Assembly (NCBI GenBank): GCA_036278715.1
Contig: DASUKN010000105.1
Span: 6,042-70,041, forward strand
Source: Candidatus Udaeobacter sp.
Lineage (GTDB): Bacteria; Verrucomicrobiota; Verrucomicrobiia; Chthoniobacterales; UBA10450
Length of the DNA: 64,000 bases
Direction of reading: 5' to 3'
The notes under the pieces are model-generated. The model was not told where the DNA came from. It saw only the letters and a program-made list of their open reading frames with translations, and did not search any database. The position numbers and the translations under genes were made by a program. Shown here piece after piece: positions 7,107 through 50,085 of the stretch (its first letter is position 1; each line of letters starts with the position of its first letter).

Positions 7107-7247
7107 GGATGTTCGGCGCTCACAGAGCGCCGTTACAAAAGAGTCAAAGCAACGCGGGCACGGCCATGTGTCCTCGCATCGCTTTTTGAATGGCATCGTG
7201 TCACTATTTTGCTGCGATGGATCAGAGCGCATGAAAAGGAATGTGAC

Positions 7248-8120
7248 ATGAGAAAAACCGAGCAAGTTTCTGTCCGCTCTGGCCAGGTCGAGTTCGTAAA
7301 GGTCGGTACGGATGCGTGGAGATGGCGCGATGTCTATCGCTGGCTGCTCGGCCTGCGATGGCCGCAGTTCGCGGCGTTCGTTGCTTCCCTTTACGTCGGA
7401 CTCAACCTGTTGTTCGCCCTGCTTTACAGTTTACAACAGGACAGCATTGCTGGAACGACTGGTGGGAGTTGGTTCTATGATTGCTTTTTTTTCAGCGTTC
7501 AAACACTCGCCACGGTCGGCTACGGCCACATGTATCCGCAGACGCTTTACGGACACATCGTCAGCACTGTCGAGATCATGACCGGGCTATTTTTGCTGGC
7601 GGTGATGACGGGTTTAATCTTCGTCCGGTTTTCGCGCCCGATTGCGCGCGTGGTGTTCAGTAATTGCATCGTCATTGCGCCCTTGAACGGCAAGCCCACA
7701 CTGATGGTGCGAATCGGCAATGAGAATCAGCACAGCATGGTCGAGGCTGAGTTCCGAATCATGTTCTCGCGCGACGAACCGTTACAAGAAGGTGGGGATT
7801 TCCGTTACTTTTACGTTCTCAAGCTGCATTTCGATCGGGTAACCCTTTTTCCTGCAGCATTGACATTGCGCCATACAATCGATGAGAAGAGTCCGCTTTT
7901 CGGCGCAACGGCTGAAACTCTCACCAACTGCCGCGCGCTGTTTATGGTGTCAGTGATTGGCATCGATCCGGTGATCGCAGCGTCGGTGCAAACCCAAAAG
8001 GATTATTCCTGGCGCGATATTCAGTTCGGCCATCGCTTCGTTGAGATCTATACCGACCACGGTGAGGGCCGGCTTACCGTGGATTACGGAAGGCTCCACG
8101 ACACCGAAGCCGCGGAGTAA
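7248..8120 (+). CDS. Inward-rectifier potassium channel, KirBac family
   Basis: Start moved to ATG 7248. Two TM helices flank the selectivity filter TLATVGYGHMYP. Kir-type cytoplasmic beta-rich C-terminal domain. Confidence 0.85.
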   Translation: MRKTEQVSVRSGQVEFVKVGTDAWRWRDVYRWLLGLRWPQFAAFVASLYVGLNLLFALLYSLQQDSIAGTTGGSWFYDCFFFSVQTLATVGYGHMYPQTLYGHIVSTVEIMTGLFLLAVMTGLIFVRFSRPIARVVFSNCIVIAPLNGKPTLMVRIGNENQHSMVEAEFRIMFSRDEPLQEGGDFRYFYVLKLHFDRVTLFPAALTLRHTIDEKSPLFGATAETLTNCRALFMVSVIGIDPVIAASVQTQKDYSWRDIQFGHRFVEIYTDHGEGRLTVDYGRLHDTEAAE

Positions 8121-11742: not shown

Positions 11743-11916
11743 AAGTTTTTCCTTTGTTTGACCGTTCAGTAAGTAAATCGATTGCGCGCAGGAAGCGATG
11801 GAATTATACCGGCGAGTCTGTAGTCGCCTCTCTGCGAGACCCGCTGCCGAGGCTGCTAACGTGCAGGATGTACGCCCCGCACAACGAGGCGACAACACGG
11901 GCGGCGGTTTGTAGGC

Positions 11917-13740: not shown

Positions 13741-13743
13741 CGA

Positions 13744-14556
13744 TTAGACCGTGAACGGTTCCTGTTCCTCGAACGAGTAGTTGGCTGGACCCATGGTAAA
13801 ATAATTCGGTGTTTGCGTCGGCGGCATCAGTTTCACGATCGATTTGTGCAACCCGCGGTAATCGCCCTTGAACTTCCCGTTCTTCCAAACGGCGAGCAGC
13901 GTTTGGGTGAACAATCCGTTACGATCGCCGTCCGCGCTGGTCTGGTTATCCTGGCATCCGGAAATTAACAATGCGGTGCCGCGCATCCGGGTTCGCGAAC
14001 TGGAGCGGTGCTGTTGGATTTTGTCGTAGAACTTCTGGTGATCCATGTAAACGCGCAGAGCAACATCGCGCGGCATCATACGCGGACGCACCGGAGTCAT
14101 GCCGAGCGCGGAAAATTGGATGGCCCGCAGCACCGTGCCGCTGTGGCAACTATCGGACAGCACAAAGATCCGCACTCCGCTGACGAATTGCTTCAACGCA
14201 GTGTAAAGCTCGTCATCAATGATTTCTCCATCGTACAAACACCACGTTTCATCGAAGCCGTCCGGTTCTAAATCGTGGCCGGTGTTGGGCACCTGGCCGC
14301 CGTGTCCCGAATAGGTGAGAAAGAAGATATCGTTCCGTTTCAGTTTCGCAGCTGCGGCTTTGATATCAGCGAGGACCCGGTTGCGTGTTGCCTTCTTCGT
14401 CAGGCGCTTGGTTATTTTGGTAAATCCCTGCGATTTCGCCACTGCCTGCATGTCGTTTGCGTCGAATTCGCACGCCGTGAGTTGACCATCCCATCCGCTG
14501 TATTGTTTTGGATCGACGGCGTTGAGACCGATGTGAAGAGACGCTCCAATTGGCAT
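13744..14556 (-). CDS. Caspase family (peptidase C14) protein, stand-alone p20-like domain
   Basis: Start moved to ATG 14556 (MPIGASLHIGLNAVDP). His motif FFLTYSGHGGQ and Cys motif FVLSDSCHSGT. Stop lies 3 nt before the next gene's start. Confidence 0.8.
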   Translation of the reverse strand: MPIGASLHIGLNAVDPKQYSGWDGQLTACEFDANDMQAVAKSQGFTKITKRLTKKATRNRVLADIKAAAAKLKRNDIFFLTYSGHGGQVPNTGHDLEPDGFDETWCLYDGEIIDDELYTALKQFVSGVRIFVLSDSCHSGTVLRAIQFSALGMTPVRPRMMPRDVALRVYMDHQKFYDKIQQHRSSSRTRMRGTALLISGCQDNQTSADGDRNGLFTQTLLAVWKNGKFKGDYRGLHKSIVKLMPPTQTPNYFTMGPANYSFEEQEPFTV

Positions 14557-14798
14557 AAGCCATCCTTTCGTTTTGGACCAGGGCAGGCATTCTGAACCAG
14601 AAGAACACGGCGGCGCAAGATGATTGTCATCTTGAGCTTCGAGCGTCGCATCCGCATGGCTGAGAGAACGCATTTGCACCGTTCGCCGCGACCACGATTC
14701 GAATCAGGGAAGGTACATCTAGGCCGCAATCTGAATCGGCGTCTGGCAGAGATGCTCTACAATCCAAGCAACACTAGACACCTGGTCGCAATTAAAAG

Positions 14799-14924: not shown

Positions 14925-17900
14925 ATGAAAACACCTCTGCTCAAATCCTCCTCTATTGTTCTGGCGGTCGCCGCTCTCATGGCCGCATTTTTGCCCGTCC
15001 CACTTGCCCGGGCGGCAACCGATCCCCTGATGCCGAAGGGGCCGGGCGGCGTGCAACCGTTCGATCCCAATCCTTCTGCTCCCGATTCGTTAACCCGACG
15101 TTTCATGACGTATGGCGTCGACCCAGACGGCAACCGCATCCCGCTGAAAACGCTGCGAATCACCAATAATACAGCGCATACCGTGTATCCGATCATGCGA
15201 GACCCGAACTCCATCACCATCAGGGGCAGCACGACAATCGGCTTGTATGATCCGTATGACCCGGCACACAAGGAATACCGCGGTTACATCGGTTACGAGG
15301 AGGGCGGAAAATATTTTTTTGGTCTGAAACGCGGCGAGAGCATCCTCGTGAGGCTGCCTCTGGTTTTCTGGAACGGTGCCCGCATTGGCATTGGGACTGA
15401 CGGTCAATATTTGACGCCGACGGGCGATCCAAATCCTCTGCGTTACGATCCGAACTCGCAACGCTCGATTACCAAAGCTGAGACCGGCGAAGATACCATC
15501 TCGAATGGCGTCGTGATGTGGTATCGGGCCGAAGTTTCCAAGGCGCCTAACGACGATACAGAGGATCAGCTCGCGGAATGGACGATTCGCGATCACGTCT
15601 ACCTGGTCAATCCGCAGATCACGGCAAAAACCAACCATGAAATCCCGGATAACCAACTCGTCACGCTGATCAATTATGACGTCTCGAATGTGGATAACCT
15701 CTATCTGCCGCTGGCTATGGAGGCGAACGACGTCTGGGTGGTACCGCAGAAGTCGGGAACAGGGCCGAATGCTAACCGTGACGGCTGGAAACCCGGGTCG
15801 GTGCCGGACGTGTACGGCTGGACTGGCGCCATCAATAACAATGACTTTCTGCAGACGCGGATCCGGGAATTCACCGCCGACAACAATCAACTTCTGGGAG
15901 AATACTTCGGGAAGAAGAAACCGGGCTGGCCCTTCTATAACATTCCGAATCCTACCAACGATCCGACCCCCCCCCGCAAAATCCCCTCCGGCGCCAATGT
16001 CTTCGCACAGAGCCCACTCAAGGCTGTTCCTTCCAGCTATGGCAACGGACAATGGCAGAACGATAAATACATGCTCTCGAGCGGCGGCACCCAACCGATA
16101 AAAGTGAGCATCGGAAATTCGATCACGGTCAATCCAGCGGGAAGCAAAACCTTGAACGTCAATGAGGTGGATCCGGAAATAAGAGAAAAGTTCGCCGCCA
16201 TTGAAGTGGGAGACGTCGTCATCGGTCGCCCGGCCCCTAGCGTCACCAATCCCATTCAAGATGGCACAACCGTTACGGCTGTGAACCCCCCCAGCGGGAA
16301 CCCCCTTAAGTACACCGTTACCTTGAGCAAAGCGTTGGTCGCCCCGAGCGGGAGCTGCACGTTCGAGTTCACGCGGCCCGTCCACGACTACGCCTCCGAG
16401 GCCATGATCAGGCTTTGGTATTCCTGGGCGCAATATTACCTCTTGCACTGGAAAGACCGCACACCGAACGCTTCCACCACGCCGACGCGGATCAAGGGAT
16501 CCATCGGCAAGAATCTGGCGACGCTGTTCTTCAACGAAGCGCATCCCGAGCTAGTCGAAGGCATGGCGGTCACAGGCCCCGGACTGGACGACGCGACGAC
16601 CGAGAAAGGCATCCACCAGGGGAACGCGGTGATTCTGGAGATCGCCAGCGATAAAAAATCGGTCGTCCTGAGTCAGGTGGTAAACACCGATTCAGAGAAT
16701 AAGCCGTTCACCTTCCATCCTCCGCAACCGCTTTGCACCGGAGCAGACAAAACTGGATGCCTGCTCTGGGCTCCCACTGCGGAAGGAGACCCGGGATATC
16801 CGCTCATCGGAGACAAATTCAGTTTTTCTAACGAGCCGGACTGGCACAACCCGTACGAATTCTCGCAGCAAGTCTATTTGATTATGGCGTCGATGAATCA
16901 GATCGGTGAGCCGAACAACGACAGCGTGTCCAAGTTCATGCAAGACATCGTCGGCGCAAACATGGGCTTCATCTTTACCAATCCTGCGAAAAATACTGGC
17001 GATGCCCAGATGGTAATCGCGATGATTCGGGACATGATAAAATCCGTGCTGCGCGGGGTCTGGGATTTCACCAAATTTCCGGATACGGTTGACGACCACG
17101 GCAACCACCTTAAGTGGTATCCAGATCCGAAGGAACACCGCGGCGATCAGCCGTTCAATGTGTTCAACCTCGATCCGTTCGTCTGGTTCGTTCACGTCCA
17201 ACTGGGCTTCTCGGGCTACGGCTTCTCCGTCGACGACGATACCGCCGACGTCGGCGCCGGCGGGGCCTCAGAACTTCAGCTTAGCGTCACTGGCACAGGT
17301 GGCCTCAAAAACAGGAATGCCTGGAGTATCCAGGCGCCGTACGGTCCGGTGAAAAACCAGCGTCTGCAATATTTCGGCCCGGCGAGCTTGAACGGCGATA
17401 CGCTTTATCACGCCATCACCAATGTCAGTGATACCACCCCGATCAAAATCACCACGGAAGGTGAACACCACCTTGCGAATGGCGATAGCGTATTAATTGA
17501 TCAGGTGATCGGCGACAACGCCGCGAATGGCACTTTCAAGATCGGCAATGCCTCGAGGAAAACGTTCGAGTTATTCGATGCCGCTACGGGAACGATTCCG
17601 GTTGCTCCCAGCGGCAACTACGTTAGCGGCGGGAGATGGGCATATCCACTCCATCCGTACGTGGACACCGGCAATGATTTGACGAAGGTTTTTTATCGCG
17701 TCACCGGGGACGATGCCCTTGGCACTTTCGAGGGCACACTGCTCTCCGTCGACGGCGTGGATCGGAACAAAAGCGGGAAAAAATTCCGGGTCTTTCAGCT
17801 GGGTCGCCAGGATGTTGGACGCCTTCTTTTAGACACTGACCTGACCGATGCGAATGGGACCCCGCTGCCCGCCGGCACTTATACGTTCGATTTCTTCGGA

Positions 17901-18236
17901 ATAGCGGACACCGGCAATGGAGTTGGCGGTCCGCCGCCACCCAAAGCTCCTCTTGGCGCCATCCGCGAGGACATTCATGAGGAAATGGATAGGATCTGGA
18001 AGAGGTTGCACCAGCTCGAAAAGCAGAATGGCGAATCTAAACAATCGGCTCGGAAGGAGAGATGGCTGGAAATGCGGATCTCCGTGCTCACAGCCCGGCT
18101 CGAGTATCCGACCGACGAAGTGCTCCAGCAGCTTGAACAACAGCTCGAAGCGCGCGAATCACTTGGCCGTAAAGCGCTGCGCAAGTTCCTGGACCGCCTG
18201 AACACGCGGATAGTCGAGCTACAAAACGGCGGCTAA
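14925..18236 (+). CDS. Large secreted thaumatin-like (PR-5/TLP fold) protein with big insertions and a C-terminal coiled-coil tail
   Basis: Signal peptide MKTPLLKSSSIVLAVAALMAAFLPVPLARA. Ordered TLP motifs: LRITNNTAHTVYPI, GESILV..FWNGARIGIGTDG, LAEWTI, INYDVSNVDNLYLPLAMEA, YGFSVDDDTADV. The last ~95 aa are heptad-rich and shared with the next large gene. Confidence 0.7.
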   Translation: MKTPLLKSSSIVLAVAALMAAFLPVPLARAATDPLMPKGPGGVQPFDPNPSAPDSLTRRFMTYGVDPDGNRIPLKTLRITNNTAHTVYPIMRDPNSITIRGSTTIGLYDPYDPAHKEYRGYIGYEEGGKYFFGLKRGESILVRLPLVFWNGARIGIGTDGQYLTPTGDPNPLRYDPNSQRSITKAETGEDTISNGVVMWYRAEVSKAPNDDTEDQLAEWTIRDHVYLVNPQITAKTNHEIPDNQLVTLINYDVSNVDNLYLPLAMEANDVWVVPQKSGTGPNANRDGWKPGSVPDVYGWTGAINNNDFLQTRIREFTADNNQLLGEYFGKKKPGWPFYNIPNPTNDPTPPRKIPSGANVFAQSPLKAVPSSYGNGQWQNDKYMLSSGGTQPIKVSIGNSITVNPAGSKTLNVNEVDPEIREKFAAIEVGDVVIGRPAPSVTNPIQDGTTVTAVNPPSGNPLKYTVTLSKALVAPSGSCTFEFTRPVHDYASEAMIRLWYSWAQYYLLHWKDRTPNASTTPTRIKGSIGKNLATLFFNEAHPELVEGMAVTGPGLDDATTEKGIHQGNAVILEIASDKKSVVLSQVVNTDSENKPFTFHPPQPLCTGADKTGCLLWAPTAEGDPGYPLIGDKFSFSNEPDWHNPYEFSQQVYLIMASMNQIGEPNNDSVSKFMQDIVGANMGFIFTNPAKNTGDAQMVIAMIRDMIKSVLRGVWDFTKFPDTVDDHGNHLKWYPDPKEHRGDQPFNVFNLDPFVWFVHVQLGFSGYGFSVDDDTADVGAGGASELQLSVTGTGGLKNRNAWSIQAPYGPVKNQRLQYFGPASLNGDTLYHAITNVSDTTPIKITTEGEHHLANGDSVLIDQVIGDNAANGTFKIGNASRKTFELFDAATGTIPVAPSGNYVSGGRWAYPLHPYVDTGNDLTKVFYRVTGDDALGTFEGTLLSVDGVDRNKSGKKFRVFQLGRQDVGRLLLDTDLTDANGTPLPAGTYTFDFFGIADTGNGVGGPPPPKAPLGAIREDIHEEMDRIWKRLHQLEKQNGESKQSARKERWLEMRISVLTARLEYPTDEVLQQLEQQLEARESLGRKALRKFLDRLNTRIVELQNGG

Positions 18237-18579: not shown

Positions 18580-18658
18580 ACCGGCAATGAGATTTTCGAG
18601 GGCACCGTCAGTCAAACCTGAACACGGATCCCGAGATAGCCGCGTGATTGCAGCTTAA
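18314..18658 (+). CDS. Truncated/diverged paralogue of the 196-aa partner ORF (possible pseudogene)
   Basis: The first ~88 aa (MRNSPTLTNASRVFIAVLVGLSLSTEGQ...SVIYTNS) are near-identical to 21632..22222. Similarity ends abruptly at ~18579. Confidence 0.45.
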   Translation: MRNSPTLTNASRVFIAVLVGLSLSTEGQSPSPPIYSRVSESMLPPNVVISLSEVNRLFPEVTHEASTGQNLTAVGNPKATRSVIYTNSEPAMRFSRAPSVKPEHGSRDSRVIAA

Positions 18659-18845
18659 TGCAAACGGAAAACAGATTACTCAGCTGAGGAATTGCGGTGA
18701 GTGGCGGCGGCGGGAATGTAATTCTCTCCGTGTGGTGTCGAGTTTGAACGATGGTTTTGTTTGGAATTCTCTCAAAGCCTTCGCGGAATTGACATTGAAC
18801 AAGTCTACTGTGAAGATCGCCTGCTCCCTTCGCCTTGTTCGTTTT

Positions 18846-27477: not shown

Positions 27478-27596
27478 TGTCATGTCGAGCGGAGTCGCTG
27501 CAACGAAATGCGGAGCATGAGGCCAGGGTTTCAAACATCTCTGGAAATCTCAGCGCTCTTGTAATCAGAGATTCCTCGACTGCGCTCGGAATGACA
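27478..27596. repeat. MITE-like palindromic element (~119 bp) in the gap between the two IcmF halves
   Basis: Terminal inverted repeats tgtcatgtcgagcggagtcg ... cgactgcgctcggaatgaca. Related to the element at 34842-34983. Confidence 0.7.
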
Positions 27597-27616
27597 AAAC
27601 GATTAAAGGAAATTGT

Positions 27617-29431
27617 ATGAGCAAGCTCGGACAAGTCGTCGAATCGGTTGAAAATTATAACAAATTCGTTCTCGATCAGGTGAAGCGCGCGCGCACTGAT
27701 CAAAAATTCGGACGCGATCTGCTGGGACGCTGGAACGATACAAAAGCAAAAATTCCCGTTACGCGCACACCGACCGGCTTGCCGCTGCCGCGTCTCGCGT
27801 TGCCTGAGATCGACGAGCCCGGCGAGATTGCGCGTTTCATTTTTGGAGAAGGTTTGCCGGGCCAATTTCCTTATCTCAACGCCGCGTATCCCGAGATGTA
27901 CCTGGAGCCGATCCGCGAGATCGAGAGTTTCGATAAGAACGGCAGTCGGAGCCGGAGTGCCCTCGATACCGGCAAGAAGCTCACACAACCTGAAGAGCCT
28001 ACGCGTTTGTTCTCCGGCCTGATGCTGGCTGAAGACACAAACGAGCGGTTTCACTACTTAACGCGGCACCAACGCACTCATCGGCTCAGCACGGCCTTCG
28101 ATGGGCCGACCCTTTACGGGCTCGATAGCGATGCGGACGGTGTTTTTGGGAAAATCGGCGAGGGGGGCGTGGCCATCGATACCGTCGAAGACATGGTACG
28201 CCTGTACGACGGATTCGATCTGGGCTCTGCGAACTTCTCCGCTTCAATGACCATCAGCGGTCCGGCCCCAATGATCATGGCCATGTACATCGCCGCCGCC
28301 AAAAGGCGGTTTGGTCCCAAAGTCGTTTCGAGATTGCGCGGCACGGTTCAGGCCGACATTTTCAAAGAAGTCCAGGCACAGAACGAAACCATTTTCCCGA
28401 TCGAACCGTCGCTGCGGTTTCTGGCCGATATGGTGGAGTTCACTACGCGCGAAATGCCGCGTTGGTATCCAATCTCGATCAGCGGTTATCACATCGGCGA
28501 GGCGGGGTCGACGCCGGTCCAACAGGCGGCCTACACGCTTTCCAACGGTTTTGCTTACGCGGAGATGTTCGCCGCGCGCGGCATCCCGGTCGACCAATTC
28601 GGGCCAAGACTTTCCTTTTTTCTAGATTGCGGACTGGACGCGGAGTACATCGCGCTCTCGCGCGTGTCGCGCCGGATCTGGGCGATCGGAATGCGCGATG
28701 TGTTCGGCGCAGGTGCGAGAGCGCAGTTGTTCAAATTGCATACTCAAACCAGCGGGCGCTCGTTAATTGCCGCCGAATTCAAAAACAATCTTACCCGGAC
28801 GGCCACGGAACTGATTCTATGCTACATGAACGCTACGAATTCGTGTCACTCCAATAGCGCGGACGAACCGTTCACCACGCCGAGTGAAGAATGGATCCGG
28901 CTCGCGGCGCACGGCCAGGCGATTCTGCTGGAGGAATCGGGTATTTTCAAACACACCATGAACATGTTGAGCGGTTCGCCCGGTATGAAAGCGGTAGAGC
29001 GCGCTGTCGAAGCGGCGATCCTGAATGAGTTCCGCGAAATCGAGCGGCTCGGAGGCGTGCTCGCTGCGGTGGAAGAGCGATATCAACGCAGTCAGATTCA
29101 AAATGCCGCGCATCGGTACGAACAACAGATTTACGACGGAACTCGCCCCATCATTGGCTTGAACAAGTATCGCGACAACGATGAGGACGCTCCGGAGGTG
29201 AAGCTCGTTCGCACGCCCCGAGCGAAACAGCAGTTGCAAGTCGATCGGGTGCAAAAGTTCAAAAAGAAAAACGCCGAAAAAGCAAAACGCGCGTTGGACC
29301 AGCTCGCAACGGTTGCCGAGCGCGGCGACAATGTTTTCCCTGCTCTGCTTGAAGCAGCCGAAGTCTGTTCGTTAGGCCAGATCACCGGTCGGTTGCAGGA
29401 AGTCGTCGGCCGTTTTCGGCCGATGGTATAG
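27617..29431 (+). CDS. icmF: IcmF-type C-terminal half: acyl-CoA mutase substrate-binding (TIM-barrel) domain (methylmalonyl-CoA mutase family)
   Basis: 604 aa. LPGQFPY, PTRLFSG..TNERFHYL..RLSTAFDGPTLYG, ISISGYHIGEAG. As I recall, these blocks are characteristic of fused isobutyryl-CoA mutase rather than classical MCM. Confidence 0.75.
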   Translation: MSKLGQVVESVENYNKFVLDQVKRARTDQKFGRDLLGRWNDTKAKIPVTRTPTGLPLPRLALPEIDEPGEIARFIFGEGLPGQFPYLNAAYPEMYLEPIREIESFDKNGSRSRSALDTGKKLTQPEEPTRLFSGLMLAEDTNERFHYLTRHQRTHRLSTAFDGPTLYGLDSDADGVFGKIGEGGVAIDTVEDMVRLYDGFDLGSANFSASMTISGPAPMIMAMYIAAAKRRFGPKVVSRLRGTVQADIFKEVQAQNETIFPIEPSLRFLADMVEFTTREMPRWYPISISGYHIGEAGSTPVQQAAYTLSNGFAYAEMFAARGIPVDQFGPRLSFFLDCGLDAEYIALSRVSRRIWAIGMRDVFGAGARAQLFKLHTQTSGRSLIAAEFKNNLTRTATELILCYMNATNSCHSNSADEPFTTPSEEWIRLAAHGQAILLEESGIFKHTMNMLSGSPGMKAVERAVEAAILNEFREIERLGGVLAAVEERYQRSQIQNAAHRYEQQIYDGTRPIIGLNKYRDNDEDAPEVKLVRTPRAKQQLQVDRVQKFKKKNAEKAKRALDQLATVAERGDNVFPALLEAAEVCSLGQITGRLQEVVGRFRPMV

Positions 29432-41962: not shown

Positions 41963-42601
41963 ATGAAAAAGTCTCTGTTAATACTCTCCGCGCTGACGCT
42001 TGCTGCTCCGATTGGGGCCTTCGCCCAGGGCAAAATTGGAACGGTCGATATGCAGCGTGCGTTCAAGGATTACAACAAGACCAAGGATGCCGAGGCAAAG
42101 ATTAACGAAGCCAAAAATGCTGCTAAAAAGGAATACGACGACCGGGCGGAAGCTTACAAAAAGGCGCTCGACGAAATCAATAATCTCAACAAGCAGCTTG
42201 AGTCTCCAGCACTGAGCGCTGACAAGAAAACCGGGATGGCGAAGGAACGCGATGAAAAAATCGCCAATATCAAAAGCATGGAGCGCGAGATCAGTGATTT
42301 TCGTCAGACGCGAGAACGCCAGTTGCAGGAGCAATTGATGCGGATGCGCGAGGGAATCGTGAAAGAAATCACCGACGTTGTTATCGAGAAAGTGAAGACC
42401 AAAAGCCTGGATTTTGTGCTGGATAAGTCGGGTATGAGCATCAACGGAGTTCCTGTGGTGATGTACTCGCCAGAGAATGTTGATTTCACGAACGAAATCA
42501 TTGAGACCCTGAACAAACCCGGTCGCGCTACAGCTTCGGCCAAACGGCCTGCGGCAGCTGCATCGGTCAGCCCTGCAGCAGCAAGAGCGACGAAACCCTG
42601 A
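41963..42601 (+). CDS. skp: OmpH/Skp family periplasmic chaperone
   Basis: Immediately downstream of bamA. Signal peptide, GKIGTVDMQRAF, long Lys/Glu-rich coiled coil. Confidence 0.8.
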   Translation: MKKSLLILSALTLAAPIGAFAQGKIGTVDMQRAFKDYNKTKDAEAKINEAKNAAKKEYDDRAEAYKKALDEINNLNKQLESPALSADKKTGMAKERDEKIANIKSMEREISDFRQTRERQLQEQLMRMREGIVKEITDVVIEKVKTKSLDFVLDKSGMSINGVPVVMYSPENVDFTNEIIETLNKPGRATASAKRPAAAASVSPAAARATKP

Positions 42602-42620
42602 CGTTCGCTTCGAATTTCAA

Positions 42621-42656
42621 AAATACACGCGGGCTAAACTCGCGTGTATTTTTTTG
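42621..42656 (+). terminator. Rho-independent terminator after skp
   Basis: aaatacacgcg-ggctaaact-cgcgtgtattt stem-loop followed by a T-run (ttttttg). Confidence 0.7.
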
Positions 42657-42717
42657 TACGGATGAGATCATCGGGCTGACACGTCGATGGTTGTCAGCAG
42701 CTGCGATCCTTCAGAGA

Positions 42718-43539
42718 ATGTTTTTTCGAACTGCATTGCTAACAACGAAATGCGCGATCGTGATTCTGCTCGCGTGCTCCACTGGTTCATTCGCTGCGGA
42801 TTGGCAGGCAACACTCAGCAAGGAGCCCGCTGGAAATTTCCCGGAGTTGCGCCCTTTGCGCGCATCCTACCGCTTCGGATGGTCGGGACTCACGGCGGCT
42901 ACGGGGGAGATTCATTTCAGCAGGCCATCAAACGACAAATTCCAACTCGACGGTACAGGGCGAACCATTGGCTTCGTTAGGGCGTTGTGGAAACTCGATG
43001 TCAATCAACGCGCCATTGCCAATTCACAAACATTGGCTCCTATTGAAACCCAGCAGACGGAGAGTTATCGATCGAAGAAATTAGTCACCCGCCTCACGTT
43101 CACCGACGGTGGAGTAACTCGAGTTCGCACAGAAGGAGAAGGCGCAGCCACCAAGACAACGACACGCGATTTCAAATTTCCTCACTTGTTCGATTTGCAT
43201 TCTGCGGCGCTTTACTTGCGCAGCCAGCCACTCAAAGAAGGAAGCGTTTATCGCCTCGCAGTTTACCCGGCCACGAACGCTTACCTCGCGACTATCAAAG
43301 TAACCGGCCGGGACAAGATCTCGGTACGGGCAGGCACTTACAACGCGATCAAGCTTGATCTGCGATTAAAACGCATCGGAAAGAATCTCCAACTGGAACC
43401 GCACAAGAAATTCCGTCGTGCCACAATCTGGGTGTCAGACGATGCCGAGCGGCTCATCCTCCGCATCGAAGCACAAATCTTCGTCGGCACAGTTTTCGCA
43501 GAACTGCAGTCAATGCACTTCGATAATCCGAAAGAGTAG
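42718..43539 (+). CDS. DUF3108 domain-containing protein
   Basis: Start moved to ATG 42718 (signal peptide MFFRTALLTTKCAIVILLACSTGSFA). ATIWVSDDAERLILRIEAQIFVGTVFAELQ resembles the DUF3108 C-terminal block. Confidence 0.6.
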   Translation: MFFRTALLTTKCAIVILLACSTGSFAADWQATLSKEPAGNFPELRPLRASYRFGWSGLTAATGEIHFSRPSNDKFQLDGTGRTIGFVRALWKLDVNQRAIANSQTLAPIETQQTESYRSKKLVTRLTFTDGGVTRVRTEGEGAATKTTTRDFKFPHLFDLHSAALYLRSQPLKEGSVYRLAVYPATNAYLATIKVTGRDKISVRAGTYNAIKLDLRLKRIGKNLQLEPHKKFRRATIWVSDDAERLILRIEAQIFVGTVFAELQSMHFDNPKE

Positions 43540-43582
43540 CGCATGCGTCTCGCTTGCGACGTTAACAAAAGCGCGCGCTACA

Positions 43583-44332
43583 TTAATCGGGTTCCCATTG
43601 ACCACGGACCGGCGGCCCGGGTGGTGGCCACATCCGCCGGCGATAAGGATTGTGAAACGGCTGGCGTGGCCCAGGCAACAACCGCAACGCGGAAAGGGTT
43701 TCCAGATCCAGCCGACCAGTTACGGACAGTCTCGCTTGCGCTTGATAGGCGCGTAGTGAGAGTTCCATCGCCGGTCCGTAGATCCCATCGATTTGCTCGC
43801 GATACAGTCCGCTCCGGGAGAGGGCGATCTGCGCGGAGACGATCACATTTCGTTGCACGCCGGGTGGAGCACTCTGAAATGGGGTGCCCGCAAAGACCCC
43901 TGCCGATGACCCGGACGGACTCATCGGAGTTGATGGAAAAACCTGCTGCCCTGGTGGAACATTGCCGAAAGGCTGAACCGGAGGGGCTGGACTTGCGGTT
44001 TGGGTATCGTCGGAAGGCGGCTCGCTCGGCACAGCACCGGTCGCAGGAGTCGGTGACGCCGTGTTGGTGATTGGTGGAGATGATCCAGAAGATTTAATCC
44101 GGAGCGATCGCAACGTCTCATCATTGAGTTCACCGGTGACCTGCAGGCCGTTGCGAATTTGATAACGACGAATCGCTGCAGTGAGATTCGCATTCGTGTC
44201 GCCATTGACTTCACCGTAGTAGAAACCCTCGTCCTTCAACGCCTGCTGCACGCTTTCGACGAGTTGGTCCGCCCGCATCAGCATTACCGACCCAATGAAG
44301 ATCACTACGGTCACTGTGATTCTCACGCTCAT
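43583..44332 (-). CDS. Protein with two peptidoglycan-binding (PG_binding_1) domains
   Basis: LKDEGFYYGEVNGDTNANLTAAIRRYQIRNGLQVTGELNDETL and LSRSGLYREQIDGIYGPAMELSLRAYQAQARLSVTGRLDLETL, separated by a Pro/Ser-rich linker. Confidence 0.75.
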   Translation of the reverse strand: MSVRITVTVVIFIGSVMLMRADQLVESVQQALKDEGFYYGEVNGDTNANLTAAIRRYQIRNGLQVTGELNDETLRSLRIKSSGSSPPITNTASPTPATGAVPSEPPSDDTQTASPAPPVQPFGNVPPGQQVFPSTPMSPSGSSAGVFAGTPFQSAPPGVQRNVIVSAQIALSRSGLYREQIDGIYGPAMELSLRAYQAQARLSVTGRLDLETLSALRLLPGPRQPFHNPYRRRMWPPPGPPVRGQWEPD

Positions 44333-44352
44333 GCGACGTCGAATTCTCCCAG

Positions 44353-45150
44353 CTATTCAGCGCTCTTCTGAGCCGTGTCTGCCGATCCGGATTCCCGCTG
44401 ACTGATCACGTCGCGATATCGCACGATGCCGTCGGTAATCGCTGCCGCTAACTGGTCGCGATAATCTTCACTCGCAAGTTTCGATAGCTCGTCCTTGTTC
44501 GTGATAAAGCCGCCCTCAATCAAGACCGCAGGAGATGTCACGTTTGCGATCACAAAAAATTGTTTGGCTTGCGTCCCGCGATCGATGGATCGGGTTCGCG
44601 CCACCAATGCTTCCTGAATGAAACTGGCGAGACTTTGGCTTTCCGGCCTCGGTGAATTAGATGGCGGCCGCGAAAAAAATGGCAGCCACGAAGCGAGAGT
44701 AGAACTGTAGCCGACCTGATGCGCCGCATAATACGTTTCAACACCACTGGCGACTGGTTTGTTGTCTTCATTAAAATGAATACTGATAAAAATGCTGTCG
44801 TTCGCCCGATTCCCGAACGCAGCCCGGTCGGCCAGCGAGACATAGCTGTCCCCGAGCCGGGTCATCAATGTGGCAATCCCTCGAGCATCCAGGAGCCGAT
44901 CGACGCGGCGCGCTACGTCCAGCGTCAGATCTTTTTCTACGACGCCGCCACACATCGCTCCGGAATCCTGACCACCGTGTCCAGGGTCAAGAACCACGAC
45001 TGCGAATGGCTTGCGTCCCTGTGGCTGAGTAGCCCTTGATCCTTTATAAACCGCCGGTCGCTTCTCCTGGTGCAAGGAAATCCAGACAAGCGAGACAATC
45101 ATCAGCAACAAGCCGGCGACCGCCACCACATTCCTCAAGGCTTGTTTCAT
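44353..45150 (-). CDS. N-acetylmuramoyl-L-alanine amidase (Amidase_3, AmiA/B/C-like)
   Basis: TM anchor, VVLDPGHGGQDSGA, SIHFNE, EGGFITN. Confidence 0.85.
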   Translation of the reverse strand: MKQALRNVVAVAGLLLMIVSLVWISLHQEKRPAVYKGSRATQPQGRKPFAVVVLDPGHGGQDSGAMCGGVVEKDLTLDVARRVDRLLDARGIATLMTRLGDSYVSLADRAAFGNRANDSIFISIHFNEDNKPVASGVETYYAAHQVGYSSTLASWLPFFSRPPSNSPRPESQSLASFIQEALVARTRSIDRGTQAKQFFVIANVTSPAVLIEGGFITNKDELSKLASEDYRDQLAAAITDGIVRYRDVISQRESGSADTAQKSAE

Positions 45151-45188
45151 TCGTGATTCCCGTGAGAAAAATTGAGTTCATCATTTAA

Positions 45189-45968
45189 TCACTGAGAAAT
45201 GATGGAGCGCAATTCCTTATCTGCCAGCGGGCGATATCGAATCGGTGTGCTGCCATCGCGCTGCAGCACTGCGGCTTCTACCGCAGCAATCGCGAGTTGT
45301 TCCTGGCGATGTTGCGCGATGGCATCGCGCGCCGGCAACTCTTTCGTCTCGCCCGCTTGCAACAACATGTGACCAACACTCCATGCGTCGAGTGCCGAGT
45401 TCACTGCCGTTTCCAAGCTGGCATCCGGTTTGTGCTCGGCTTTGAGAAATGCTTCCATGAATTCGACCGATTGGCGCGTCCCGCTGAGCACGGCAAAATC
45501 TTGTCGCGCTCGCGAATACGTCGCACCGTTGCTTGCGATCTCGCCGTCGTATTCAACTCGCAAAAACAAATCGTCCTCGGGACGCGCGCCTACCTCCGCG
45601 AAAAGCATGCGCGCCAGATACGGAGCACCGTAGACCTGCTCGAAAGCGCTCTTCATGACCGGGCTGAGCGAATAATGCGCGAGCCGCCGCAGCGAAACAT
45701 CCGCCGCCGAGCGCGTGAAACCCTCGGTGCTCGCCAGTTCAATGGCGGCCATTCGTAAACGCTCGATATCGCCGGGATGGCCGATCGCTCCCATTGCAAT
45801 ACGATCGTAAATCTCGAAAAGTTTCTGGCGCGTCTGTCCAAGCGTGACAAACAGGATGCCTTCGCCGTAACCCAGCGCCGCGATGGGACTACCAGGGGCG
45901 AGCTGTCCTTCGATGTACTCGCGCCGGTTGGCGATCGCTTCAACCCAACGATACGGCTCCTCAATCAT
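45189..45968 (-). CDS. prcA: 20S proteasome alpha subunit (bacterial PrcA type)
   Basis: Resembles actinobacterial PrcA: GSPIAALGYGEGILFV, KLFEIYDRIAMGAIGHPGD, RVEYDGE. The start overlaps the prcB stop (ATGA). Confidence 0.8.
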   Translation of the reverse strand: MIEEPYRWVEAIANRREYIEGQLAPGSPIAALGYGEGILFVTLGQTRQKLFEIYDRIAMGAIGHPGDIERLRMAAIELASTEGFTRSAADVSLRRLAHYSLSPVMKSAFEQVYGAPYLARMLFAEVGARPEDDLFLRVEYDGEIASNGATYSRARQDFAVLSGTRQSVEFMEAFLKAEHKPDASLETAVNSALDAWSVGHMLLQAGETKELPARDAIAQHRQEQLAIAAVEAAVLQRDGSTPIRYRPLADKELRSIISQ

Positions 45969-46789
45969 GCCACCATTTCCTTGAACACGGCCGCGATCTT
46001 ATTTTGCGGCAAAGTGGTGATGCCTTTGCGCGACACAATCTTGATTATGGGATAAATTTTTCCGCTCCGATCCACGCCTGCTGTCGCTGTATCTGATTCA
46101 GCAGCAGTATCGAGGGCGCGCAGCGCGAGGGACACTGCTTCGTCTTCACTCAGGTTGTGCAGCGGCTTCCCGCCCCATGTGTTTTCATAATAAAGAATGC
46201 CGCGGACCGCAGGGGAACCGGATCCAGTTGCCGCGTAATCGGTGGCTTCAAATTGCGCGCCCATCGCGTCGTAAAAGTAGAGACGCGCTTCGGGCTTCGA
46301 ATTTCCGTCATAAGTCGCAAAGATCGGGACTACGACACCGATGCCTTGCATGACGAACCCGAAATTGTCGCGCAACAACTTCGAGAGCGCCCGCACTTTG
46401 CCGTCGACGCTCATTTCCTGCAGCTGAGTTCGCCGAAAAAATTGCAGTGAATGCTCAAGCACGCGTGCCATCTCCCACGCGGTGGCAGGCACACCGGCGA
46501 TGGCCATTATCGAATTGCTATCAATCTCCAGAACTTTGTCCGCGCGATCATAGACAACGGTGTTACCCGCAGTCGCACGGCGATCTCCTGCAACCAGAAC
46601 GCCGCCGGAAAATTTGAAGGCAAGAATCGTCGTCGCCTGGGTCGGTTGCCACATCTGTTGTTGCGCCGGGTTTTGCACCATCGGACCCGGGGCAGCCGGG
46701 CCAAGCAGCCCTTTGCGCCGCAGCAGCGAAGGAAAGTCATCCGCTGCACCAGAGAAATTCTGGTCAAATCCCAACTCCGAATGGTCCAT
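45965..46789 (-). CDS. prcB: 20S proteasome beta subunit (PrcB) with ~53-aa propeptide
   Basis: Start moved to ATG 46789. Predicted processing before the catalytic Thr in QA|TTILAFKFSGGVLVAGDRRATAGN. The start overlaps the UBact stop (TAATG). Confidence 0.85.
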   Translation of the reverse strand: MDHSELGFDQNFSGAADDFPSLLRRKGLLGPAAPGPMVQNPAQQQMWQPTQATTILAFKFSGGVLVAGDRRATAGNTVVYDRADKVLEIDSNSIMAIAGVPATAWEMARVLEHSLQFFRRTQLQEMSVDGKVRALSKLLRDNFGFVMQGIGVVVPIFATYDGNSKPEARLYFYDAMGAQFEATDYAATGSGSPAVRGILYYENTWGGKPLHNLSEDEAVSLALRALDTAAESDTATAGVDRSGKIYPIIKIVSRKGITTLPQNKIAAVFKEMVA

Positions 46790-46965
46790 TACTGACCCGT
46801 GCGCTGGCGATAGCGCTTGGATTGGTTGGGATCCACCTTGCGCATTTTCTTTAACAAATCCTTCGTGTCCGGTCGCGAAACATCGGGCGAACGCGGGCCA
46901 CCGCTGTCGCCTTGTTTTGGTCCCCACGGAGCCGGTTCTACCGGCTTTTGAATGCGCTCAGGCAT
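46789..46965 (-). CDS. UBact, the Pup-like prokaryotic ubiquitin-like modifier of Gram-negative phyla
   Basis: 58 aa from ATG 46965: MPERIQKPVEPAPWGPKQGDSGGPRSPDVSRPDTKDLLKKMRKVDPNQSKRYRQRTGQ. Disordered N-terminus, conserved LLKKMRKVDP..KRYRQRTGQ C-terminus ending in Gln. Sits directly upstream of prcB-prcA, like pup. Confidence 0.75.
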   Translation of the reverse strand: MPERIQKPVEPAPWGPKQGDSGGPRSPDVSRPDTKDLLKKMRKVDPNQSKRYRQRTGQ

Positions 46966-47124
46966 GAAAAAACGTACGAGCAAAAGTTCGAAACGCAAGG
47001 GGCGCAGCGTCAATAGGCTTCTTAAATGGCTACAGTGCATTCGTTAACAGTTTGAAAAAACAATCGCTCGAACTGTCGAACCCGCTTGTCAGACAAATGC
47101 GCCGATGGCAACATTTCCGCAGCG

Positions 47125-47592
47125 ATGAAGGCAGCCGGCATTTTGTGCGCGATGAGCTCTTTCGCGCTTTGCATTGCGCTCGCGGAAACCCCCGCGTCGC
47201 CTGAGAAAAAAGGGACTGAACCCACGCAGCTCGAAGCGTTGGCAAAAAAGATTGACGAACAGAACGCCAAAATCGATGCGCTTTCTCAGGAGATTCTGAA
47301 ACTGGAACAACAACTCTCGCATTCCCGGCCCGGTGTGATGATAGGAGAAGCTTCGCCTGCGCCCGCAACCGGGACAGCTCCTGCTGCACCTGTACCGCAT
47401 TCCGCTGCGGGAGGTAACACACATACGGTTGCACGCGGTGAAACTCTCACTTCCATCGCAAAGATGTACAAAGTGACCGTGGACGATCTGCAGAAAGCCA
47501 ACAACATTGAAGACGGCCGTAAATTGCAGGCCGGCCAAACGATCACGATCCCGACGACATCACCTGCCGCGTCCGCCTCGCCGTCGCCCTGA
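47125..47592 (+). CDS. Secreted LysM domain protein with coiled-coil region
   Basis: Start moved to ATG 47125 (signal peptide). C-terminal LysM domain: HTVARGETLTSIAKMYKVTVDDLQKANNIEDGRKLQAGQTITIP. Confidence 0.75.
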   Translation: MKAAGILCAMSSFALCIALAETPASPEKKGTEPTQLEALAKKIDEQNAKIDALSQEILKLEQQLSHSRPGVMIGEASPAPATGTAPAAPVPHSAAGGNTHTVARGETLTSIAKMYKVTVDDLQKANNIEDGRKLQAGQTITIPTTSPAASASPSP

Positions 47593-47609
47593 TCGACAAG
47601 AAAATTCCG

Positions 47610-48158
47610 GTGAACCAAAAGTGGTTTCTTCGCAAACACGAGGACGGTAGCACGTTCGGGCCGGTGCAGTTCGAGCAGATCACGCGTTGGGCTGCTGCGG
47701 CGCAGGTCGCGCCGCATGATACTCTTTCCAGTGATGGACAGACTTGGACCAAAGCGCCGATGCTTCCTCAGCTCGGCATGGACTGGCTGGTTGAACTAAC
47801 GAGCGAGCATTATTACGGACCGACCACCCTGGGTGCATTGCGGGAGTTTATTCGGCTCGGCGAAATCGACGGCGAAGCAGTCGTGATTAACACTTGCGAT
47901 GGTATTCGCAGACAGATCCGCGAAATGCCCGACCTGTGGGAGACCGCCCAGTCCGGAGCCGATGAAAATCAATTCCAAATTCAACTCGACGATCCCGTCG
48001 GACCAGGTGTTGCGAAGATGTCTGTCCGTCTTCAGGAACGAATTCGCGATCTTGAACAGACGCTGCAGGAAGAACGCCGCGCCCTCGCCGACAGTCAGAA
48101 GCGCTATGACGATCTCGAACGAAAATACCAGGATCTCTTACTGCGCGACCTGTCGTAA
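47610..48158 (+). CDS. GYF_2 (DUF4339)-like domain protein with C-terminal coiled coil
   Basis: GTG start. Two W...G..GP....L......G.I modules (WFLRKHEDGSTFGPVQFEQI; YYGPTTLGALREFIRLGEI), then a heptad-rich tail. Confidence 0.45.
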   Translation: MNQKWFLRKHEDGSTFGPVQFEQITRWAAAAQVAPHDTLSSDGQTWTKAPMLPQLGMDWLVELTSEHYYGPTTLGALREFIRLGEIDGEAVVINTCDGIRRQIREMPDLWETAQSGADENQFQIQLDDPVGPGVAKMSVRLQERIRDLEQTLQEERRALADSQKRYDDLERKYQDLLLRDLS

Positions 48159-48192
48159 GTCAGGCATCGAATCGCCGGCGTTTCCGTAACAT

Positions 48193-50085
48193 TTAAACCG
48201 GCAATCGCTCTTCTTCTTGTTCCGGTACTTCTGATGCGAGAATTCCCTGCTGCGGTTCTGGTTCCCGCTGGGGCGACGACTCCAAAAAGCTCTGCCGGCA
48301 CAGCTGCGCGTATTTTTGATCCAGCGCGAGCAATTCATCGTGTGAGCCGCGCTCGATGACTCGGCCGTGATCGAGCACGAGAATTTGGTCCGCGTGCACG
48401 ATCGTGGAAAGCCGGTGCGCAATTACAATGGACGTTCGATTCGCCATCAGATGTTCCAGCGCCTCCTGGATCAACCTTTCCGTCGCCGTATCCACACTCG
48501 CAGTTGCCTCATCAAGAATCAAAATCGGTGGATCTTTGAGCAGCGCGCGTGCAATCGAAAGCCGCTGCTTCTCGCCCACACTCAATTTAACACCGCGCTC
48601 ACCGACAACGCTCTCCACGCCCTGCGGCAAACGTTCGATGAACTGCCGGGCGTTCGCCGCGTCGATCGCGCGCCACAATTCGGCGTCGGCCGCGCCTGGC
48701 TTCCCCATCAACAGATTTTCACGAATGGATCCGTTGAACAGAAAGCTTTCCTGCGTCACCACCCCAATCGCTTCGCGCAACGTGGGCAGGTCGTATTCGC
48801 GAATCGGCTTGTCATCGACGTAAATCTGGCCGGAATCGTATTCGTAAAAGCGGACCAGTAAATTCACCAGCGTCGATTTCCCCGCGCCAGTCGCGCCGAC
48901 CAGCGCAGTTGTCGTGCCCGGCGGCGCGTGAAACGAAACGTGCTTTAGCGCGGGTAATCCTTCGGCATAACTGAAGCCCACGTTTTCGTACCGAATGTCG
49001 CCGATGATTCGCTCTTTTGGACTGCGCAAACGTGTCTGCGCTTGTGAAGCGGCGACACGTAGCGGCGCTTGAAAACCTGGTTCGACGTTTTCGTCGAGGA
49101 TCTCGAACACGCGCTCGCCCGCTGCGCGCCCGGCCTGGACCAATTGATTTAGCTGATGCAGCCGGCTGATCGGATCATAAAGAAATGCCGTGAGCATCAG
49201 GATCGCGACGAGGTCGCCGATCTGTAACGTCCCATTCAAAACGGCATGACTGCCGAATCCCAGCACGAGCAACGCGCCGATCGCTTCGAACATCGACATC
49301 GAGGGCGAGTAAATCGCCCACGTCCGCATCACCACCAGCGTGGCGTGCCGCAATTGATCGCTGGCGCCATTGAAACGCGAGTGTTCCTCGCGTTCGCGGG
49401 CGAAACTCTTGATCTGCCGAATCCCGGCAAGATTGTCGTGCAACAAGGCGTTGATGTTTGAGGCAGCGCGCCGCTGTAATCGATAACGGCGGTGCGCGGT
49501 TAACGTGTAACCGAGCGCGCCCGCAATCAGGAGCGGCAAAGGCACCAGCGCGAGCAATGCGAGCATCGGGTTCAGATAAAACATCACCGCCATCACAATG
49601 ATGATCTGTAAAACCGCGACGACGCCTTGCTCGATTCCATCGATCAGCACCCGCTCCACCGAGTTGACGTCTTCAATCACGCGCGTCATCAGGTCGCCCG
49701 TGGCCCGGTTATCAAACCAGCGCAGCGGCAGCAATTGAATGTGTGAATACAAATCGCTGCGCAGATCGAAAATCACTTTCTGCTCGAACGTGTTATTCAG
49801 GATGATCCGGAGCGCGTTAAAAAGGTGCTGAACAACAAAAGCCGCGGTGGCGAGCAAAAGAAGCGGTAGCAATTTGTCCGGCCGGTTGGCATACACCACA
49901 TCGTCGATGATCCATTTGGTTACGCCTGGAAAGACGATCACCATCAGCGTGCCCAGGATCGCGCACGCGAGCGTCCCGGCAGCCAAACCGGGATAGCGCT
50001 TTAGATAAGCGAATACGCGCCAAACCGTTTCCATTTGCAACAATTTTACTCGAAGCCCGCGAATCACGCGAATCGCTTCGGCCAT
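48193..50085 (-). CDS. ABC transporter permease/ATP-binding fusion protein (MsbA/lipid exporter-like)
   Basis: Six-TM domain, Walker A GATGAGKST, signature LSVGEKQR, Walker B ILILDEATS. The start may be the downstream METVWRVF (50034). Confidence 0.85.
   Translation of the reverse strand: MAEAIRVIRGLRVKLLQMETVWRVFAYLKRYPGLAAGTLACAILGTLMVIVFPGVTKWIIDDVVYANRPDKLLPLLLLATAAFVVQHLFNALRIILNNTFEQKVIFDLRSDLYSHIQLLPLRWFDNRATGDLMTRVIEDVNSVERVLIDGIEQGVVAVLQIIIVMAVMFYLNPMLALLALVPLPLLIAGALGYTLTAHRRYRLQRRAASNINALLHDNLAGIRQIKSFAREREEHSRFNGASDQLRHATLVVMRTWAIYSPSMSMFEAIGALLVLGFGSHAVLNGTLQIGDLVAILMLTAFLYDPISRLHQLNQLVQAGRAAGERVFEILDENVEPGFQAPLRVAASQAQTRLRSPKERIIGDIRYENVGFSYAEGLPALKHVSFHAPPGTTTALVGATGAGKSTLVNLLVRFYEYDSGQIYVDDKPIREYDLPTLREAIGVVTQESFLFNGSIRENLLMGKPGAADAELWRAIDAANARQFIERLPQGVESVVGERGVKLSVGEKQRLSIARALLKDPPILILDEATASVDTATERLIQEALEHLMANRTSIVIAHRLSTIVHADQILVLDHGRVIERGSHDELLALDQKYAQLCRQSFLESSPQREPEPQQGILASEVPEQEEERLPV

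Follow-up and report, generated by a model that had tools for sequence, protein, structure and literature searches.

A UBact-prcB-prcA operon of Candidatus Udaeobacter separated from the pafA, dop and mpa genes

How can a proteasome that is served by a ubiquitin-like tag operate when the genes for attaching the tag and for unfolding the tagged proteins do not stand beside it? The question is raised by a 64-kb stretch of DNA from Candidatus Udaeobacter sp. (the window), which carries on its minus strand a three-gene operon for the tag protein UBact, the proteasome beta subunit PrcB and the alpha subunit PrcA, joined via a TAATG and an ATGA overlap. A proteasome in this genus had already been noted, and all its components were reported (Brewer et al. 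2016, bioRxiv 10.1101/053942). We consider it likely that the operon is the UBact-proteasome degradation core of Candidatus Udaeobacter, the genes of which are dispersed, with pafA for the carboxylate-amine ligase at another locus.

The UBact operon and its conservation

The operon comprises the following features.

46965..46789, minus strand: UBact, 58 aa (ATG 46965..46963, TAA 46791..46789), MPERIQKP...KRYRQRTGQ; PF20513, NF033388
46789..45965, minus strand: prcB, proteasome beta subunit, 274 aa (ATG 46789..46787, TGA 45967..45965); PF00227
45968..45189, minus strand: prcA, proteasome alpha subunit, 259 aa (ATG 45968..45966); PF00227
46789..46634, minus strand: PrcB propeptide, codons 1-52, placed by alignment to PrcB structures
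46636..46634, minus strand: codon of PrcB Ala(-1)
46633..46631, minus strand: codon of the catalytic Thr1 of PrcB (Thr53)

The stop codon of UBact and the start codon of prcB have one A in common (TAATG), and the ATG of prcA overlaps the TGA of prcB (ATGA). Both overlaps, and with them the operon proposed in a first-pass annotation of this DNA, were read directly from the coordinates. Among the related loci with enough room, prcB was found 3' of UBact in 130 of 133 and prcA in all 121, and the UBact/prcB overlap was TAATG or TGATG in 63 of 88.

The identity of the 58-aa open reading frame was tested with two curated models and both were passed, PF20513 of Pfam with E 1.2e-22 and 79.9 bits (cutoff 27.8) and the NCBIfam equivalog NF033388 with 83.5 bits (cutoff 35). 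The frame is UBact, as the first-pass annotation had proposed, and close relatives carry the NCBI name 'ubiquitin-like protein UBact [Candidatus Udaeobacter sp.]'. A phmmer search with the protein gave 157 clusters at 50% identity. The C-termini of 150 cluster representatives read RTGQ (64), RTGE (26), RSGQ (11) and RSGE (10), in agreement with the motif RYRQR[T/S]G[E/Q] that the first-pass annotation gives for the family. The window protein follows the family rule ...[RK]Y[RK]QR[TS]G[QE] with KRYRQRTGQ directly before the stop codon. Among 88 related loci the ending was RTGQ in 81 and RTGE in 7, and the MPER start together with the length of 58 aa was kept in 83. The N-terminal half is rich in proline across the family, with G23, P24 and P32 invariant or nearly so.

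When UBact was compared with 109 distinct orthologues, the median ratio of nonsynonymous to synonymous substitution rates (dN/dS) was 0.047 at a median dS of 0.89. It is the most conserved gene at the locus, with 79-98% identity across the order Chthoniobacterales versus values down to 51% for PrcA. The small frame is conserved upstream of prcB in the relatives (88 loci), a point on which the first-pass annotation had staked its reading. Strong selection acts on the core operon, which is intact.

Two longer reading frames were considered and rejected. An 83-aa UBact starting at ATG 47040 has an unconserved extension, in 19 loci a stop codon comes 3-4 codons ahead of the ATG of the 58-aa frame, and conservation is seen at the TAATG junction; a 320-aa PrcB starting at GTG 46927 likewise has an unconserved extension across the conserved TAATG junction. 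The public annotation of these proteins is imperfect: NCBI lists relatives of PrcB as 'proteasome subunit alpha', and some gene callers lengthen PrcB to 320 aa and UBact to 74-83 aa or more.

The distribution of UBact was followed by a pattern scan of bacterial genomes, one per species, in which at least 581 hits were confirmed (the top 80 all from Chthoniobacterales), and the UBact profile matched 3281 clusters at 90% identity. With these numbers, the description of such tagged proteasomes as rare outside Actinobacteria was overstated.

The first-pass annotation had also called UBact a homologue of Pup, and here sequence homology could not be demonstrated. UBact showed no Pfam match to Pup (PF05639) at E <= 0.01. 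When a profile of 53 UBacts was compared with Pup of Mycobacterium tuberculosis in hhalign, the probability was 2.1% and only the C-terminal DLL...Y.Q..GQ stretch was aligned. The label 'Pup-like' therefore is an analogy, drawn from the gene context and the G[QE] end.

PrcB and PrcA both passed PF00227 (E 1.6e-29 and E 4.6e-5), which confirms the proteasome subunits of the operon. The best NCBIfam model for PrcB was TIGR03690 (bacterial beta) with 173 bits, below the cutoff of 191.9, and for PrcA it was TIGR03691 (bacterial alpha) with 85.9 bits, below the cutoff of 139. The closest solved structures were the 20S subunits of Rhodococcus and M. tuberculosis, and the PrcA structures of these two were matched by the window PrcA at E 4e-14. 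An identical PrcA is listed by NCBI as 'hypothetical protein' of Ca. Udaeobacter sp. (HEX5492903.1). The same PrcA sequence was matched exactly on contig JAICUQ010000001.1 (104 kb) of the Candidatus Udaeobacter metagenome-assembled genome GCA_025935755.1, where the window corresponds to positions 7193-71192.

When PrcB was aligned to Rhodococcus beta1 (PDB 2h6j, 1q5q), Thr53 corresponded to Thr1 behind a propeptide of 52 residues, Asp69 to Asp17 and Lys85 to Lys33. Thr1, Asp17 and Lys33 were invariant in the PrcB of 76 of 76 orthologues. The beta subunit with a propeptide and a catalytic Thr was thus correctly recognised in the first reading. Of the processing site, its position and the three catalytic residues held in the alignment; the residue in front of Thr1 did not, as it is Ala in place of Gly(-1), the canonical residue attacked in the autolysis of proteasome beta subunits (PMC4792962).

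Split and canonical UBact loci

The absence of dop, pafA and mpa from the window was examined in two ways and was borne out by both. Pfam scans of 48 window open reading frames, including all of at least 350 aa, gave no Pup_ligase, AAA/Mpa, PafBC, Bpa or PAC2. When PafA of M. tuberculosis, a Dop fragment of Acidothermus and Mpa of M. tuberculosis were used in tblastn, nothing was found in the window or in 86 loci. The PafA probe had been validated at 519 bits against PDB 4b0t; the Mpa probe was unvalidated. As a positive control, a PafA fragment of verrucomicrobial origin was picked up by the actinobacterial probes (E 1e-14 to 1e-17), which were therefore sensitive enough.

Closer probes were then available from a UBact locus that has all three genes (L168). 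The UBact-type Mpa, Dop and PafA gave no match in the window with tblastn. In the whole set of 2.08 Mb, which consists of the window and 174 loci, the Mpa probe matched only three loci, each with the canonical cluster described below, and the Dop probe merely cross-matched PafA genes. The 10 kb of the source contig that continue past the window (L093) contained no pafA, dop or mpa either.

Related loci were collected in several searches. Homologue searches with PrcB and with the UBact profile yielded near-identical Udaeobacter clusters only, without distant context, and the one-genome-per-species scan with a diverse UBact alignment retained only Chthoniobacterales. The metagenome scan with a consensus-first UBact alignment added 76 loci of the split type seen in the window and four canonical loci. 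All neighbour counts refer to 158 split-type loci, from which the source contig is excluded. None of the 158 has PafA, Dop or Mpa at a distance of up to 10 kb from UBact.

The canonical order is Mpa-Dop-UBact-PrcB-PrcA-PafA in L130, L154 and L168, and partial in L127. This six-gene cluster for conjugation and proteasome was reportedly described by Lehmann, Udasin, Livneh and Ciechanover in 2017. The window shares with it a UBact that passes the UBact hidden Markov models and has the ...YRQR[TS]G[QE] end, the position of UBact directly upstream of prcB-prcA, and a PafA, that of the Chthoniobacterales, with 64-65% identity. It differs in that mpa and dop do not precede UBact-prcBA and pafA does not follow it; LysM/GYF_2 and Amidase_3/PG_binding_1 genes stand in their places, and pafA is unlinked in Udaeobacter. 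These neighbours in the window are listed here.

47086..47592, plus strand: LysM-domain protein, 168 aa; PF01476, E 1.2e-15
47610..48158, plus strand: GYF_2-domain protein, 182 aa, with a C-terminal coiled coil; PF14237, E 5.5e-7, 29.7 bits, cutoff 25.8
45150..44353, minus strand: Amidase_3, N-acetylmuramoyl-L-alanine amidase with an N-terminal membrane anchor; PF01520, E 3.7e-50
44332..43583, minus strand: secreted protein with two PG_binding_1 domains; PF01471, E 1.8e-27

The LysM gene is divergent from UBact with an intergenic gap of 120 nt and is followed by the GYF_2 gene. The gap from prcA to the amidase gene is 38 nt and from there to the PG_binding_1 gene 20 nt, all on the same strand; coordinates and Pfam agree here with the gene order given in the first-pass annotation. 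BamA, OmpH/Skp and DUF3108 genes come directly next, so that the window shows an envelope-biogenesis neighbourhood.

The same neighbours were found in the related loci. Upstream of UBact, 136 of 140 loci have a LysM gene at no more than 900 nt, divergent in 122 and co-directional in 14, and GYF_2 was detected beside it in 70 of 125. Among the loci that reach far enough, 88 of 106 have Amidase_3 on the downstream side, and 86 of 91 have PG_binding_1. The amidase gene and prcA share a strand in 60 of 60 loci, separated by a median of 13 nt, and a median of 30 nt lies between the amidase and PG_binding_1 genes. In a divergent sub-lineage (L076), where Pfam confirmed the co-directional LysM form, LysM-UBact-PrcB-PrcA-Amidase_3-PG_binding_1 lie on one strand between SCO1/CopD and PFK. 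The LysM/GYF_2 and Amidase_3/PG_binding_1 genes therefore accompany UBact-prcBA across the Chthoniobacterales even with different outer flanks, and none of the four neighbours was found at the four canonical loci. The ancestral verrucomicrobial layout probably was the canonical six-gene cluster, which was later broken up in the Chthoniobacterales and allied lineages.

The residue at position -1 of PrcB tracks this rearrangement. In a first set of orthologues it was Ala in 60, Ser in 15 and Gly in one, and in a second set Ala in 48, Ser in 24 and Gly in four; the four with Gly are exactly those of the canonical-cluster loci. Ala or Ser thus occurs in about 150 split-type PrcBs versus Gly in the four canonical loci.

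The Mpa proteins of two canonical clusters end in ...GVSSVV (L168, 6575-8407) and ...GVSTVV (L154, 2770-4449), unlike Mpa of M. tuberculosis with its ...GQYL terminus. By these termini, the docking of Mpa on the alpha ring of canonical UBact systems may differ from that in M. tuberculosis.

A PafA gene was found apart from the operon. With a PafA fragment from the sister lineages described below as the query, 305 hits were obtained, including 'PafA2 family protein' entries of Chthoniobacterales and of Candidatus Udaeobacter metagenome-assembled genomes. Three pafA loci are Udaeobacter-like: L090, which NCBI names 'Candidatus Udaeobacter sp.', L091 and L092. In these, an amidase-signature gene and a Pterin_4a gene precede pafA, convergent PDZ/DegP proteases follow it, and no AAA gene was found within 10 kb. 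In two contigs of sister lineages, a Pup_ligase gene is followed by GYF_2 and LysM on the opposite strand and then by UBact-PrcB-PrcA; their UBacts are 69% and 78% identical to that of the window.

The gene was reconstructed from L089, where three frames join to one PafA-family protein of 466 aa with the motifs GIETEYG, RLYLDMGHLEY (RLYLDxGHxEY), GCHENYL, INARDEP and YRRLHLLIGDSNMS. The short Pup_ligase 'proteins' of 150-335 aa had been considered as a split gene, which was rejected: they are frameshift artefacts, as the neighbouring genes are fragmented too and the frames join. The long-read assemblies concerned (ENA ERZ250395xx; L089, L091, L092, L175) contain many genes with frameshifts, among them pafA, 6PGD and PAPS reductase.

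The Chthoniobacterales Pup_ligase composite is 64-65% identical to PafA of the canonical clusters, and the Dop probe of L168 is 41-48% identical to the gene over partial stretches. In the best-aligned stretches of the Udaeobacter-like pafA, the identity is 54-73% to canonical PafA versus 34-39% to Dop. From GIETEYG to GGRLYLD the spacing is about 50 residues versus about 75 in Dop, so that a full Dop-loop is missing. By the closer identity to canonical PafA and by the missing loop, the Chthoniobacterales gene is a PafA orthologue.

A PafA orthologue hence exists in Udaeobacter-like genomes (L090, L091 and L092). The first-pass annotation had regarded the absence of a ligase from the whole genome as fatal to its reading. 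This check came out in favour of the reading as far as these genomes go; for the source genome itself it covered about 81 kb on one contig.

A PF01425 amidase-signature gene, a 380-aa gene without assignment and Pterin_4a lie in front of pafA in L091 (5845-11008), L092 (5215-10594) and L090 (1-578). It would be pure speculation to name the PF01425 amidase as a candidate deamidase of the UBact Gln.

A probable dispersed pathway and its alternatives

UBact, PrcB and PrcA are identified and conserved, the catalytic residues are intact, and the operon is separated from pafA, dop and mpa throughout the order. In the pathway that we favour, a single transcript would start at or just before the UBact ATG and would most likely continue into the amidase and PG-binding genes; for the amidase gene, cotranscription with prcA is probable. 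The three proteins would be translationally coupled via the TAATG and ATGA overlaps, PrcB and PrcA would assemble to a 20S particle, and the 52-residue propeptide of PrcB would be removed autocatalytically between Ala(-1) and Thr1. The C-terminal Gln of UBact would have to become Glu, and its gamma-carboxylate would be joined to substrate lysines by the unlinked PafA-type ligase. An Mpa-like AAA ATPase would presumably then bring the tagged proteins to the proteasome. By analogy with the Pup system, Dop and Mpa are presumed to be encoded elsewhere in the genome.

Several observations weigh against this pathway. The homology of UBact and Pup is not significant in the profile comparison, and position -1 of the window PrcB does not carry the canonical Gly. 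The 2.08 Mb, in which six pafA loci are covered together with about 10 kb of at least one flank each, yielded no homologue of Dop or Mpa. The sole PafA-family gene that was found scores alike on the PafA model (336 bits) and on the Dop model (309 bits), and both scores are far below the equivalog cutoffs. The deamidase and unfoldase steps come from analogy and from one sentence of a preprint, and we know of no biochemical demonstration of UBact conjugation in any organism.

Could the pathway have been reduced instead, with Dop and Mpa lost and a single PafA-like enzyme kept beside UBact and the 20S core? This enzyme would deamidate and ligate, or would use UBact-Gln directly, and the 20S core would be fed by another unfoldase or would degrade unfolded proteins without ATP. 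The near equidistance of the single PafA-family protein from the PafA and Dop models speaks for it, as does the distribution of dop and mpa, which adjoin UBact in all four canonical loci and were found neither within 10 kb of UBact in the split-type loci nor near the six pafA loci (L087, L089-L092, L175; local search only), including the 9 kb upstream of pafA in L175. The streamlined genomes of Udaeobacter (Brewer et al., bioRxiv 10.1101/053942), the single PafA/Dop homologues in Planctomycetes and the suggestion that the ligase itself might be a deamidase (Iyer et al. 2008, PMC2588565) point in the same direction. However, the absence of dop and mpa is local, and all proteasome components were reported by Brewer et al. 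(bioRxiv 10.1101/053942). In addition, the enzyme is a clear orthologue of canonical-cluster PafA, which coexists with a separate Dop, its short GIETEYG-GGRLYLD spacing leaves no room for a full Dop-loop, and 92% of the UBacts end in Gln, which needs Dop in the Pup system. We therefore regard a loss of Dop and Mpa as unlikely.

A functional link to the cell wall was also considered. UBact, PrcB, PrcA, Amidase_3 and PG_binding_1 would then form one operon in which proteolysis is co-regulated with peptidoglycan hydrolases or acts on them, and the GYF_2 protein could read the Pro-rich N-terminal half of UBact. The high frequency and close, same-strand spacing of the LysM, amidase and PG-binding genes fit this view, and so do the persistence of the block in L076 within wholly different outer flanks and its restriction, GYF_2 included, to non-canonical loci; moreover, GYF domains bind proline-rich peptides, and the Pro-rich half with G23, P24 and P32 is conserved. 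Against it, the amidase, PG-binding and LysM proteins have signal or anchor sequences and act outside the cytoplasm, beyond the reach of the proteasome after export, and a horizontally acquired operon that was inserted between the LysM and amidase genes would give the same synteny without any functional link. The amidase and PG-binding genes are absent in L088, and GYF is missing in the L076-type lineage. A cell-wall role appears very unlikely to us.

Elements of both ideas can be combined: the UBact-20S module, once detached from Mpa, Dop and PafA and rebuilt in the LysM/GYF_2-amidase-PG-binding block with the change of Gly(-1) to Ala or Ser, might serve a mechanistically different pathway. 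This could be independent of Dop and Mpa with a bifunctional PafA-like enzyme, or could be a proteasome co-regulated with peptidoglycan in which GYF_2 is the UBact reader. We think that such a change of mechanism is rather improbable. That the small frame arose by chance or is a relic in decay, with the proteasome genes left inactive after a horizontal transfer, is hardly credible. The scores of PrcB and PrcA below the NCBIfam equivalog cutoffs, the annotation of PrcA as hypothetical by NCBI and the lost Gly(-1) would suit a relic. On the sequences, however, this is contradicted by the conservation data, since no gene of the locus is better conserved than UBact (79-98%, versus PrcA down to 51%), which has a dN/dS of 0.047, 76 of 76 orthologues have the full catalytic triad, and the start/stop overlaps are conserved.

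The pathway with dispersed genes resembles the Pup-proteasome of M. tuberculosis (Pup, Dop, PafA, Mpa, PrcBA) in several respects. Both have a small, probably disordered tag with a G-Q end beside prcB-prcA, a PafA-family ligase (for UBact, in Udaeobacter-like genomes), and a beta subunit with a propeptide and Thr1/Asp17/Lys33, and the nearest structures are the 20S subunits of M. tuberculosis and Rhodococcus. They differ in that UBact has no detectable homology to Pup and that PrcB and PrcA stay under the bacterial equivalog cutoffs. Pup adjoins a PafA gene in every lineage examined by Iyer et al. 2008 (PMC2588565), and this adjacency is absent at the window locus. An incomplete block at one locus is also known from Planctomycetes and Plesiocystis, where a Pup-like tag and PafA occur but proteasome genes do not (Iyer, Burroughs and Aravind 2008, PMC2588565). 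There, ligase and tag are kept together and the proteasome is lacking, the opposite of the present case, in which the tag remains beside the proteasome genes and the ligase is encoded at another locus.

Nothing is overturned by these results, as the UBact family and its presence in the genus are already in the public annotation. To our knowledge, with the original UBact paper outside the comparison, there is no earlier description of the order-wide uncoupling from mpa, dop and pafA, of the accompanying Ala/Ser(-1) processing site, of the LysM/GYF/amidase/PG-binding neighbourhood or of the promoter motif close to the start codon. UBact systems are, as far as we know, known from genome analysis only, and the canonical six-gene cluster versus the split arrangement offers a clean natural contrast that could guide the choice of genes for a reconstitution. 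Candidatus Udaeobacter belongs to the most abundant soil bacteria and is auxotrophic for several amino acids. A tag-directed proteasome was proposed as an amino-acid recycling route (Brewer et al., bioRxiv 10.1101/053942), and this is a plausible role for the UBact-proteasome.

The promoter-like motif and other genes of the window

One further feature was found by comparing the orthologous upstream regions.

46966..46999, minus strand: promoter-like motif that adjoins the UBact ATG, conserved among orthologous upstream regions

In the window the motif consists of TTGCGT (46998..46993), a spacer of 16 nt and TACGTT (46976..46971), followed by TTTTC before the UBact ATG. The ungapped consensus of 142 distinct upstream sequences is cTTGC(G/C)TTTC..A..TTTGCTC.TA..TTTTTT.ATG, and the conserved form in the same 142 is TTGC(G/C)T, 16-17 nt, TA(C/A/G)(G/A)TT and then TTTT(T/C). 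The -35/-10-like motif ends 5 nt before the ATG, which suggests the promoter of a leaderless or near-leaderless mRNA; no Shine-Dalgarno sequence is visible. A simple sigma-70 promoter scan made no call at the motif, and no RNA family was found in an Rfam scan of 42500-48500.

Some genes elsewhere in the window were recorded as well. Two adjacent Peptidase_C14 caspase-domain proteins of 311 and 607 aa are encoded on the minus strand (10417-14679) beside a class-V aminotransferase, and on the plus strand two open reading frames of 1103 aa (14925-18236) and 968 aa (18648-21554) had no Pfam and essentially no NCBIfam match. An ankyrin-repeat protein is fused to a YkuD L,D-transpeptidase domain (658-2244), a KirBac-like inward-rectifier K+ channel is encoded at 7209-8120, and at 26290-29431 a B12-binding domain is fused to MeaB beside methylmalonyl-CoA mutase.

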